Below the pieces are notes generated by a model that saw nothing but the letters and a program-made list of their open reading frames with translations, was not told where the DNA came from and made no database searches. The translations under genes were made by a program, and so were the position numbers. DNA of 64,000 nt, taken from positions 1 through 64,000 of the IMG/VR virus record IMGVR_UViG_3300029267_003762. One strand, given 5' to 3'. This document shows, in pieces, positions 3,566-6,776 of this stretch (its first letter is position 1; every line of letters begins with the position of its first letter). This stretch comes from a virus.

Positions 3566-3978
3566 GCGGCAGCGACGAGATGGGTAGCCCCTTCAGCATG
3601 CAGGACGTGGTGCGGGACATCGTCAGGCGCGGCAGCTATGTGAAGAAGGCGCGGATGATCGTGGAGCTCGAGTTGTCGGACGGGCGCCACGCCGTTGCTC
3701 GTACCAACGAGTACACGTGCTCCGAGCAGGAGGCTGTTCAAGCTTCCATACGAGGCCTGGGCAATTCGGCTCTATTCGTGACCGTGAAGCTCGCCATGGA
3801 CGTGCTGCGGGTGCAGGCCGACCACTTCGTCGAACGCCTCGTCAAACAGGCAGAAGAAGAGGAGAAAGAAGCCGTCCGCATCAAGCAGTACTTGAACAAG
3901 CTTTCGGGCCAGGACGATGAGGAATCCAGGCTTCTTCGTTCGTGGCTACAGGATGCTCTCAAGCATCGCGGTCTTTGA
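3562..3978 (+). CDS. hypothetical protein
   Basis: ATGA overlap; C-terminal coiled coil. Confidence 0.55.
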   Translation: MSGSDEMGSPFSMQDVVRDIVRRGSYVKKARMIVELELSDGRHAVARTNEYTCSEQEAVQASIRGLGNSALFVTVKLAMDVLRVQADHFVERLVKQAEEEEKEAVRIKQYLNKLSGQDDEESRLLRSWLQDALKHRGL

Positions 3979-4051
3979 CTTTTCTGTTGACCGAGGTTGC
4001 CGTGGGCAGTAGAACAGAAGCCTGCCCAGGCAGCCTGGTCTTTGCATCTTC

Positions 4052-4411
4052 GGGGGTGACTTGGTTTCGACGTGGATGTCGAAGCGTCTTCTGCGTGCAG
4101 GCAGAGGCACCGGAACTGCCTTGACCAAACTGGTGCAGCGTAGTTGCCAACGACAACAACGCACTCGCCGCCGTCGCTTGATGGTGGCCGTCGACGGGCG
4201 AGGTGTCTCGCGTAGCCCTGAGGCGTCAACCACTCGAGGCTGAGCCCTACCGGTGGTCTCCTGACGGACCTGAAGAAGGGCGAGATTCATTGGGAGATGA
4301 CTGGCTGGAAAGACAGCCGAACCCCGCTGGGAGGGTAGACCAGCTACGCACGTGAACGAGGAAGCCGTGTAGCTTTCGCGGACCGCAGTTCGATTCTGCG
4401 CACCTCCACCA
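4052..4411 (+). ncRNA. ssrA: tmRNA, tag peptide (A)ANDNNALAAVA
   Basis: 5' GGGGGTGAC..GGTTTCGAC; 3' T-arm CGCAG-TTCGATT-CTGCG and CACCTCC-ACCA; G3-U wobble in the acceptor stem; tag ORF 4146-4181. Confidence 0.95.
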
Positions 4412-4424
4412 ATAGAAAGGGCAC

Positions 4425-4907
4425 ATGATGGAGTACAACGAGGTTGTACCGCTGTACGCGGACAAGTTCTTCGCTCGTGTGGGCTCTCCTACTTCGACAG
4501 GGTGCCGAGAGTGGCAAGCCGGACTGGACAAGGACGGTTACGGCCACTTTCAGTTTCGGCACGAAGGCAAGAAGTACAAGGTTCGAGCTCATCGAGCGGC
4601 CTACATGTTGGCCGGCAACTGGCTGCCTCCGGGCGCCATTCTCCGACATACCTGCGACAATCCTGCGTGCGTGAACCCTGAGCACCTTCTGTGGGGTACA
4701 CACGCTGACAACGTTCAAGACTGCGTGAGTCGGGGAAGGAACGCGTTTGGGGAAGGTAACGGCAGGCATGTCATGTGTGACGACGAGGTGTTGGAGCTTC
4801 GAGCTTCTGCCTCTTCTTTCATCCATGAGCAAGCGCACAAGTACGGTGTCGATGAGGCGGCCATACGCGCTGCGTTAGCCCAGCGTACTTGGACCCATGT
4901 GCCTTGA
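4425..4907 (+). CDS. HNH homing endonuclease
   Basis: CREW..GYG..RAHR..Y, LRHTCDNPACVNPEHL..GT..DN..D. Confidence 0.9.
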   Translation: MMEYNEVVPLYADKFFARVGSPTSTGCREWQAGLDKDGYGHFQFRHEGKKYKVRAHRAAYMLAGNWLPPGAILRHTCDNPACVNPEHLLWGTHADNVQDCVSRGRNAFGEGNGRHVMCDDEVLELRASASSFIHEQAHKYGVDEAAIRAALAQRTWTHVP

Positions 4908-5281: not shown

Positions 5282-5354
5282 GAGCCTGATACTCGAAGGA
5301 ACGAGTGCACGAGTTCTTGTCGTGTTTCTGCAGGTTCGAGTCCTGCCAGGCTCG
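5282..5354 (+). tRNA. tRNA-Arg(UCU)-like, atypical anticodon loop
   Basis: Acceptor GAGCCTG/CAGGCTC; D-stem CTCG/CGAG; anticodon stem CACGA/TCGTG with loop GTTCTTG; T-arm GCAGG-TTCGAGT-CCTGC. Confidence 0.7.
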
Positions 5355-5446
5355 CTGGGTACCTGGGTCCCCCTCCGTCGACGGAGGACAGGCCCGGGGT
5401 CGGAGGGATGGGCTCCTACTCAAGCCCGTGATGATGCTGCATGCGG

Positions 5447-5537: not shown

Positions 5538-5616
5538 AGCGGGATAGAGGAGTCTGGTCGTCCTCGCAGGGCTCATAACTCTGAGATCGGTGGTTCGAAC
5601 CCACCTCCCGCAACCA
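5538..5616 (+). tRNA. tRNA-Met(CAU), initiator-like
   Basis: Full cloverleaf; loop CTCATAA; 1:72 mismatch; GGG in the anticodon stem; encoded CCA. Confidence 0.92.
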
Positions 5617-5617
5617 G

Positions 5618-5809
5618 ATGAAAGCTCGAGCAGTAGAGGTGGTGATCACGGTGCTGTGCTTGGTGGCCGCCGGCGCGGTCGCCTACTTCATGCTTCGGCC
5701 TGGTCCATGTGACGGCGTGAAGTGCCCCGAGGGCACCTACCCCATGGAGCAAGGCGCCGGACTGTTCACCTCGAGGTGCTCGTGCATCGGGCATCCGAAG
5801 GATCCGTAG
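5618..5809 (+). CDS. small Cys-rich membrane-anchored protein
   Basis: N-terminal hydrophobic helix, then several Cys; stop overlaps the next tRNA. Confidence 0.4.
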   Translation: MKARAVEVVITVLCLVAAGAVAYFMLRPGPCDGVKCPEGTYPMEQGAGLFTSRCSCIGHPKDP

Positions 5810-5873
5810 CTCAATTGGTGAGAGCCCCCGGCTCATAACCGGGCTGTTGGCGGTTCGAACCCGCCCGGATCTA
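5800..5873 (+). tRNA. tRNA with CAU anticodon (Ile2-like or elongator Met)
   Basis: GGATCCG/CGGATCT acceptor; GCTC/GAGC D-stem; CCCGG-CTCATAA-CCGGG; GGCGG-TTCGAAC-CCGCC. Confidence 0.9.
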
Positions 5874-5875
5874 CT

Positions 5876-6302
5876 GAGTTCTGTCAGGAGGTAGGCCTAG
5901 AAGCAGCCATCCTTCAAAGAGTCGCCAATGGCAGCAGCCGGAGTACCAGCGATGGACCGCCGGCCCGAGAGGCTTCGGCCTCGAAGCGTCCCACCAGACG
6001 TTTGCACCACCAGGTTAGTCCCAGGTGGGAGTCTTAGAGCTCATTGGGGAATGTGGGCGTAGAGCCATCGGGAAGCGAATGTGGGAGGTAAACCGCGTCA
6101 GCCTTTTCAAAGCCTGGTAACAGGTGGAGTTCCTGAGTCCTGACGTGGGGGAAGTACCATCAGTAGCACGGCCGGTTTTGCCCGCACGGACGAGAGGAAC
6201 TGCGGGTTTGACTTGAAGGGATCAGAATGAGCCCTGTGCCCCTTCGGGGATGACCGGTACAGCCCTAAGAGCGTTTGGCGTAGCAGCACACTGTCAGAAC
6301 TC
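5876..6302 (+). ncRNA. large structured RNA with a 23S rRNA L11-binding-domain copy and a sarcin-ricin-loop-like hairpin
   Basis: Closing helix GAGTTCTGTCAG (5876-5887)/CTGTCAGAACTC (6291-6302); CAGGAGGTAGGCCTAGAAGCAGCCATCCTTCAAAGAGT...GCGTAGCAGCACACTG; hairpin CCCGCA-CGGACGAGAGGAAC-TGCGGG at 6181-6206. Confidence 0.8.
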
Positions 6303-6310
6303 GCAACTCA

Positions 6311-6389
6311 GGGACGGCGGCATGGTGTCTGGGGAGACCCCAGGCCGGCCCGCTCGGGGGTTCATGAAACACCGCCGTCCTCTCTTTTT
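6311..6389 (+). terminator. hairpin plus U-tract ending the RNA-gene cluster
   Basis: GGGACGGCGG.../CCGCCGTCCT followed by CTCTTTTT. Confidence 0.45.
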
Positions 6390-6407
6390 AGCCGCCAGGA
6401 GCAGAAG

Positions 6408-6776
6408 ATGCGTTTGAAAACAAAGCTGAAGAAGATCTTGAGCACCCGTCTCACCGACGTGACGACGCGCGCGGCCAAGCGACTTCCGACCCGCATGCTC
6501 GAGGGCATCGTGTGGGCCGGCTACTATGTGCCGCGCACGCTCAAGCTGCCCATCGTCGGGTCGCTGCACACCGCCGCGTTCTTCGAGTACGGAGATCGGC
6601 TCGAGTCAGAGTCCCCCCTGCCGGCTGGGCGCAAGAGCGCGTACGAGCGCAAGACCTCGAATCAGGCTGCGGGGTGCAGGGGCGTCAAAGGCCGGACCAC
6701 GGTCATCGAGATGAGCGAGCCCTTGGAGAGCTACCCGATCCCGCGACATCGCCCGGCTACGGAGATCGACGCATGA
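6408..6776 (+). CDS. hypothetical basic protein
   Basis: AGGAG RBS; ATGA overlap with the next gene. Confidence 0.55.
   Translation: MRLKTKLKKILSTRLTDVTTRAAKRLPTRMLEGIVWAGYYVPRTLKLPIVGSLHTAAFFEYGDRLESESPLPAGRKSAYERKTSNQAAGCRGVKGRTTVIEMSEPLESYPIPRHRPATEIDA

Follow-up and report, generated by a model that had tools for sequence, protein, structure and literature searches.

The GTPase-associated centre (GAC) of bacterial 23S rRNA is the smallest domain able to bind ribosomal protein uL11, and the translation GTPases make contact with it. On its own, the 58-nt GAC fragment (E. coli 1051-1108) forms tight complexes with uL11 and with thiostrepton, and EF-G binds oligonucleotides that mimic the GAC and the sarcin-ricin loop (SRL; H95, E. 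coli 2646-2674). Extra-ribosomal RNAs that copy a protein-binding site of rRNA are represented by the autoregulatory leaders of L10, L1 and S15, which act in cis as 5' leaders of cellular r-protein operons. The large structured RNAs GOLLD and ROOL and the phage tmRNA are phage-borne, non-coding RNAs often found beside tRNAs. Searches of Rfam 15 and of full-text literature turned up no RNA that stands by itself and imitates a functional centre of the ribosome.

Here we describe an RNA element from the window, the 64,000-nt stretch of viral DNA that was analysed. It has the same helices, loops and junction as the bacterial GAC and shares with it the U1060-U1078 pair. Unlike the rRNA domain, it is free-standing, is encoded in a phage tRNA array, and carries between the equivalents of 1090 and 1091 a domain of 0-351 nt in the family followed by a UUUG linker; its closing stem is a generic helix and not that of rRNA, which leaves the uL10 site of H42 without a copy. 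It also differs from the r-protein leaders, since it stands alone among tRNAs with no r-protein gene near and copies rRNA almost base for base, and from GOLLD, ROOL and tmRNA, since it matches no Rfam 15 model. The family to which it belongs appears to be undescribed and unlike any known kind of RNA.

The split copy of the GTPase-associated centre and its locus

The ends of the element pair with each other, as the first-pass annotation had proposed, and the resulting closing stem P1 counts 12 positions, namely 11 Watson-Crick pairs and one U-U. After taking out 5923-6277, we aligned the remainder to E. coli rrlH: 5884-5922 joined to 6278-6293 is identical at 44 of 54 positions to 23S 1053-1106, without a gap. 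The two halves thus correspond to H43-H44, the uL11-binding domain, and the ends of the element fold into a self-closed GAC copy (top of H42, H43 and H44) with a variable domain inserted in the 5' strand of H44. Position 1101 is A in the phage element and U in E. coli. The predicted splitting of the domain is likewise borne out, the interruption consisting of the insert and the linker (Table 1); the two UUCG hairpins lie at about 5968-5981 and about 6239-6250.

Table 1. Positions in the window of the element, its parts and the neighbouring genes
Feature	Position	Strand	Remarks
tmRNA	4052-4411	+	107.9 bits; 1.5 kb upstream of the element
HNH endonuclease ORF	4425-4907		Pfam HNH_3, E 8.5e-9; between tmRNA and tRNA genes
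tRNA-Arg	5282-5355	+	
tRNA-Met	5538-5616	+	
tRNA-Met (CAT)	5800-5874	+	directly upstream of the element; ARAGORN; Rfam tRNA model 65.6 bits
Non-coding RNA element	5876-6302	+	427 nt
P1, 5' strand	5876-5887	+	GAGTTCTGTCAG; replaces H42; partner 6291-6302
H43 copy	5888-5913	+	E. coli 1056-1081; loop 5897-5905; A1067 equivalent 5899
Junction	5914-5922	+	UCAAAGAGU; E. coli 1082-1090; includes 1082:1086 and the equivalent of A1088
Variable insert	5923-6273	+	351 nt
P3, closing the insert	5923-5925 with 6271-6273		CGC/GCG in the window, UGC/GCA in relatives (compensatory)
Subdomain I closing stem	5928-5932 with 6064-6068		compensatory changes
Subdomain II closing stem	6070-6072 with 6263-6265		compensatory changes
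GNRA hairpin in subdomain II	6113-6124	+	CCUG-GUAA-CAGG; stem covaries, GNRA loop form kept
GUUCCU block	6129-6134	+	UUCCU invariant in the subclass; pairable with 6195-6200 (AGGAAC)
SRL-like hairpin	6180-6207	+	GCCCGCA-C-GGAC-GAGA-GGAA-C-UGCGGGU
UUUG linker	6274-6277	+	between insert and H44 copy
Upper H44 copy and loop	6278-6290	+	E. coli 1091-1103; GC-GUAGCA-GC-ACA; A1095 equivalent 6282
P1, 3' strand	6291-6302	+	CTGTCAGAACTC
Branched GC-rich stem, then UCUCUUUUU	6311-6390	+	fold of 6296-6400, -43 kcal/mol

The IMG/VR virus record from which the window comes is 92 kb long, has a G+C content of 62% and is about half complete. Among its proteins, Pfam and PHROGs name a thymidylate synthase, virion-protein domains and the HNH endonuclease; so few genes are named that the phage itself must be very novel. 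A search of IMG/VR through the neighbouring 402-aa protein found no relatives. No gene for L11, L12 or RelA/SpoT was found in the 92 kb (about half of the genome), so any partner of these kinds would be the host's. The tmRNA upstream encodes the tag peptide ANDNNALAAVA, whose beginning, ANDNNA, we take to be reminiscent of Alphaproteobacteria and which could hint at the host. The HNH ORF may be a homing endonuclease within the RNA gene cluster. A 63-codon ORF (5618-5809) lies between the two tRNA-Met genes; its N-terminus, read by eye, looks hydrophobic, and its 3' end, with the stop codon, runs over the first 10 bases of the second tRNA-Met gene. It has no Pfam match and may be either a real gene or a chance ORF.

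No long ORF spans the element. It begins one base after the upstream tRNA-Met, and not two as first annotated. It is followed by a branched GC-rich stem and UCUCUUUUU, possibly the terminator of the tRNA/RNA transcription unit, although a simple terminator scan did not report this stem; the ORFs further downstream have no Pfam matches. With such a terminator-like stem and such ORFs behind it, and with no L11 or L12 gene found in the 92 kb, the element was rejected as a cis-acting r-protein leader.

The phage family, its covariation and its distribution

IMG/VR was searched by exact words from the H43 loop or the H44 loop, and among the matches listed at least 83 distinct relatives could be parsed from phage contigs, nearly all of these matches being the family element and not a true 23S gene. 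The members share a common order: P1, H43 copy (consensus GGAnGUUGGCYUAGAAGCAGCCAUC), junction (nUnUAARGAGU), insert, UUUG, H44 copy (GC-GUARNA-GC-AC) and the return strand of P1. The window element has the H43 loop YUAGAAGCA and the junction AUCnUnnAARGAGU (5888-5922), then an insert after GAGU with its short closing stem, UUUG and GC-GUARNA-GC-AC (5923-6290), and like the rest of the family it has a P1 and lies in a same-strand tRNA array. Inserts of the 83 parsed members range from 41 to 351 nt, the window's being the longest, and one further member has none at all. The linker is nearly invariant, with U in 78, 81 and 75 of 83 at its three U positions and G (74) or A (9) at the fourth. The member devoid of an insert, L130 (3709-3776, +), is a minimal RNA of about 68 nt with an uninterrupted H44 and scores 36.2 bits.

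Covariation among the phage homologues, which the first-pass annotation had proposed as a check, is strong. In P1, all four Watson-Crick types occur at every position, and compensatory changes are seen for 10 of 10 counted pairs. Within the rRNA-like part, the pair 1058:1080 is U:A in 31, G:C in 28, A:U in 16 and C:G in 5 members, and 1057:1081 is A:U in 60 and C:G in 10. The 1082:1086 pair, which we take to be a tertiary pair of rRNA, also covaries (U:A 38, C:G 25 of 83), while the purine-A mismatch 1056:1103 is retained as in E. coli; both observations argue for the same three-dimensional fold. The first four and last four bases of the insert pair as well, with many compensatory changes. Over an alignment of 31 relatives, the covariation score was 0.559, against 0.133 for shuffles (none of 500 reached the observed value) and 0.09-0.15 for slid controls.

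A covariance model built from these 31 phage relatives, R1, scored further members at 55-113 bits and the genuine E. coli 23S GAC (1047-1112) at 51.6 bits (E 1.5e-13), a resemblance far beyond chance. In the window it aligned only in part, to 5879-5936 (44.7 bits, E 1.9e-11) and weakly to 6115-6299, because the 351-nt insert exceeds the span of the model. The 83 relatives, the covariation including 1082:1086 and the closing stem foreign to rRNA indicate that the element is a selected, free-standing GAC copy and not a chance match.

The nucleotides of the loops are also kept, although their conservation is partly circular since the loops served as search words. Of 39 relatives detected by the 3' motif alone, 37 retain A1067, whereas the conservation of A1095 is biased by the search, this base being fixed by the 3' pattern. 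The H43 loop shows few recurrent variants, among them a compensatory change of C1064-G1074 to A-U. Judged from these alignments, very strong purifying selection falls on the nucleotides of the uL11 and factor sites.

The family is common among large phages with a wide variety of hosts and is closely tied to tRNA arrays. At the 83 parsed loci, 548 tRNA genes lie on the strand of the element and one on the opposite strand; a tmRNA is also present at 6 of them. A same-strand tRNA is found within 20 nt of 40 of the 83 elements, which makes the earlier suggestion that tRNA processing could release the RNA plausible. Blastn of the window element against 50,697 phage records gave no match, but a typical relative as query found cultured carriers. 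Unannotated copies are present in Pseudomonas phage pf16 (between tRNA-Asn and tRNA-Pro), Aeromonas phage 4_4572 (before tRNA-Met) and Serratia phage BF, and blastn matches to the H43 part suggest further ones in related Erwinia jumbo phages, Xanthomonas phage XbC2 and Paenibacillus phage Pd_22F. In a scan of one genome per prokaryote species, made for inserts of 77-107 nt, 10 matches were obtained, seven being true 23S genes and three family copies. All three copies sit on MAG contigs, and at least two of them (L222 and L230) are inside tRNA arrays and thus likely phage DNA, so the family looks phage-specific. The seven false positives (L223-L227, L229 and L231, from Sphingosinicella, a Hyphomicrobiaceae MAG and a metagenome chromosome) carry TTTGGCGTA 88-118 nt downstream of the H43 loop, a chance spacing through which the gapped family pattern picks up genuine rRNA genes.

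Rfam 15 (4227 models) was searched at gathering thresholds with the whole window and 12 relatives, and at E<=10 with 5700-6500 and the pf16 copy. Apart from tRNA and tmRNA, these searches yielded only a resemblance to LSU rRNA that, at 20 bits, fell below the threshold; the window element and the 12 relatives had no match, so that for them this check returned neither LSU rRNA, a group I intron nor any other known family. In particular, LSU rRNA (RF02541) gave no match at E<=10 in the 92-kb record or in 5700-6500, and the group I intron (RF00028) none at E<=10 in 5700-6500. Together with the family, its covariation and the non-rRNA closing stem, the lack of an LSU match effectively rules out a decayed rRNA fragment.

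The variable insert and its sarcin-ricin-like hairpin

It had also been asked whether the insert splices out. The element would then be a captured rRNA fragment with a self-splicing intron or intervening sequence, whose removal leaves a 76-nt GAC RNA, and the insert does follow a U and end in a G as a group I intron would. This reading fails on several grounds. Homologous inserts range from 0 to 351 nt and often consist of a single hairpin, those of 41-100 nt being too small for a group I core; the base of the insert is an ordinary covarying stem; and neither the group I search nor the LSU search described above returned a match. In addition, local alignments of the inserts with E. coli 23S and Sphingosinicella 16S, 23S and 5S rRNA were no better than reversed-sequence controls. 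The intron and the rRNA-relic readings can both be regarded as effectively excluded.

The window belongs to an insert subclass that starts with YGC after GAGU and ends with ...CCYUNAGAGCR before UUUGGCG. Its members are L131, L132, L215 and L232 from viruses and L235-L244 from metagenomes, and the Serratia phage BF copy also looks similar. A consensus fold computed with RNAalifold on the window and five relatives contains P3, the closing stems of subdomains I and II and the GNRA hairpin at 6113-6124 (Table 1), each with compensatory changes. The long-range stem TCTTAGAGCT/AGCCCTAAGA of the first-pass annotation can be drawn in the window sequence but is not conserved in this consensus.

Across the family, inserts contain recurrent modules: CACCCC-N5-9-GGUAAGG in 19, GCGAAAUG in 9 and GAAGUAC in 8 of 83. 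The first of these forms a hairpin near the 3' end of the insert (for instance in L113, L127, L129, L135 and L218); by eye, its 3-bp inner stem covaries and carries GAAA, UAAC or GAGA tetraloops. Nothing corresponding to this module was found in E. coli 23S or Sphingosinicella 16S/23S rRNA.

A companion claim had pointed to a sarcin-ricin-like hairpin in the window, and relatives with the canonical motif support it. The window hairpin keeps the GAGA loop and the GGAA strand of the SRL, but GGAC replaces AGUAC (AGUA to GGA), so the bulged-G core is one base short, and its flanks lack rRNA similarity. Relatives keep the sarcin-ricin consensus AGUAC-GNRA-GGA at the homologous place, with AGUAC-GAGA-GGAA on a covarying stem in L236, L237 and L116/L254; L238 has AGUAC-AAGA-GGAA and L244 has AGUAC-AAAA-GGAA. 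A separate insert subclass also has the motif (L070, AGUAC-GAAA-GGAG; L149, AGUAC-GGGA-GGAA). The bulged-G core AGUA/GAA under a GNRA loop with C-G closure is found in L236, L237, L116, L070 and L149. When the stem was aligned with E. coli H95, 7 of 7 flanking pairs were compensatory, and the core positions G2655, A2657, C2658, A2662, G2663, G2664 and A2665 were invariant. Most family members lack such a hairpin. The motif was found in 3 of 83 inserts, against 0.085 expected. A scan with the pattern GAGCAAGCCAG...TAGTACG for further members of the L070/L149 type gave only chance matches beyond those two, and the 80 nt upstream of the hairpin showed no similarity to 23S 2570-2654.

The hairpin may have a second pairing partner. 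All 8 sequences tested have an upstream UUCC, 56-66 nt ahead of the hairpin, from which a helix of 5-8 bp with the 3' half of the hairpin can form; the flanking pair of this helix, read by eye in seven subclass sequences, is G:C in four, U:A in two and A:A in one, and RNAalifold favours the UUCCU:AGGAA helix. Since the conserved UUCCU can pair in this manner, the module may be a pseudoknot or a switch, instead of or alongside an SRL-type fold. In E. coli 23S (L121), by eye, CGGUCC at about 2595-2600 is complementary to GGACCG at about 2663-2668, at a distance much like that between UUCCU and AGGAA in the phage RNAs, perhaps by coincidence.

Proposed role of the RNA and competing readings

Our preferred reading is that the element is a stable RNA that imitates the factor-binding site off the ribosome, in trans, and probably binds host uL11; we give it a probability of about 0.65. 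The RNA would be co-transcribed with the phage tRNAs and freed by RNase P and the 3' tRNA-processing nucleases. It would then bind uL11 to give an RNA-protein particle, and this particle would act in trans by competing with ribosomes for something that recognises the factor-binding site. The ligand that matters to the phage could be uL11 itself, a translation GTPase, or a toxin or defence enzyme directed at the ribosome. The most likely direct ligand is host uL11, and we lean towards it because the isolated rRNA domain suffices for binding and the 92-kb record encodes no L11. The mini-ribosome decoy of the first-pass annotation thus stands in part: the selected, free-standing copy of the uL11-binding GAC holds, and the insert as a spliced intron and the TCTTAGAGCT/AGCCCTAAGA stem do not.

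As to what the particle would do, we rank the options from a decoy for enzymes through uL11 titration and GTPase capture to a mere binding handle, and each of them taken singly is unlikely. The leading one, which we hold as a possibility well short of even odds, makes the RNA a decoy, or a competing substrate, for host enzymes directed against the GAC or the SRL, for example ADP-ribosyltransferases, ribotoxin-like nucleases or glycosidases from abortive-infection or toxin-antitoxin systems. A bacterial toxin that ADP-ribosylates GAC helix 44 does exist (PMC8661411). Some members pair the GAC copy with an SRL-like hairpin and so unite two classic toxin targets. The location of the element in tRNA arrays also fits, as phage tRNAs from arrays of this kind reportedly protect against defences directed at tRNAs. 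Nevertheless, we know of no defence system that targets the GAC during phage infection, a decoy substrate would merely slow a catalytic toxin, and a sporadic toxin is harder to reconcile with the very wide host range of the family than a universal partner is. Somewhat less probable is a sponge that soaks up free or exchangeable host uL11 and thereby blunts the stringent response: ribosomes lacking uL11 cannot activate RelA, and the cell would stay relaxed and keep making stable RNA and protein. The conservation of the full uL11-binding fold and the lack of a phage L11 or RelA/SpoT gene in the 92 kb agree with it, as does the background that rplK (relC) mutants are relaxed and that some phages carry alarmone-acting enzymes. 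However, mature ribosomes already hold uL11, so that stoichiometric titration needs very high RNA levels, and a sponge would have to reach a copy number comparable with that of ribosomes; it would also leave unexplained the SRL-like hairpin and the strict conservation of the exposed A1067, a base that uL11 binding alone does not need.

That base, which contacts factors and is kept in relatives found by the 3' motif alone, fits a third role, in which the particle would be a miniature factor-binding site, a binding platform that sequesters or stimulates a translation GTPase (EF-G, EF-Tu, IF2, RF3 or a relative). The co-occurrence of GAC and SRL-like elements in one RNA, in large subclasses, and the established binding of EF-G to mimics of both point the same way; yet most members lack the SRL-like hairpin, and sequestration of an elongation factor would harm the translation of the phage itself, and we consider this platform improbable. 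Still lower we place the idea that the GAC copy is a mere protein-binding handle that stabilises or localises the RNA, the variable insert being the working part: inserts do have recurrent modules of their own, but the GAC copy is the sole part common to all members, and the insert can be a single 41-nt hairpin or be absent, as in L130. Returning to the preferred imitation of the factor-binding site, a more specific version for the large members is tentative and, on balance, doubtful, though it ranks above each of the four roles just weighed. These members, the window's among them, may be natural 'ribosomes in pieces', RNAs of about 400 nt with GAC and SRL copies in the right geometry. With host uL11, such an RNA would form a miniature factor-binding site that could capture or mislead docking translation GTPases, RelA-type sensors or ribosome-inactivating defence enzymes.

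If the RNA does act as a decoy, it would be a new viral way to manipulate or protect translation and would point to recognition of the stalk base by host factors or defences. Structural biology would gain natural GAC variants with built-in scaffolds, and the family would fill unannotated gaps in phage tRNA arrays. Since pf16, BF and 4_4572 are cultured, genetically tractable carriers, the family is directly testable. For pf16, the copy does not track the 1058:1080 pair of E. coli 23S, the sole gammaproteobacterial reference compared, which gives no positive host link and fits recognition of a universal fold. In one IMG/VR phage (L076), two GAC-like RNAs stand in tandem on the minus strand, 3846-4086 and 4099-4336, with scores of 90.6 and 58.4 bits and 12 nt between them.
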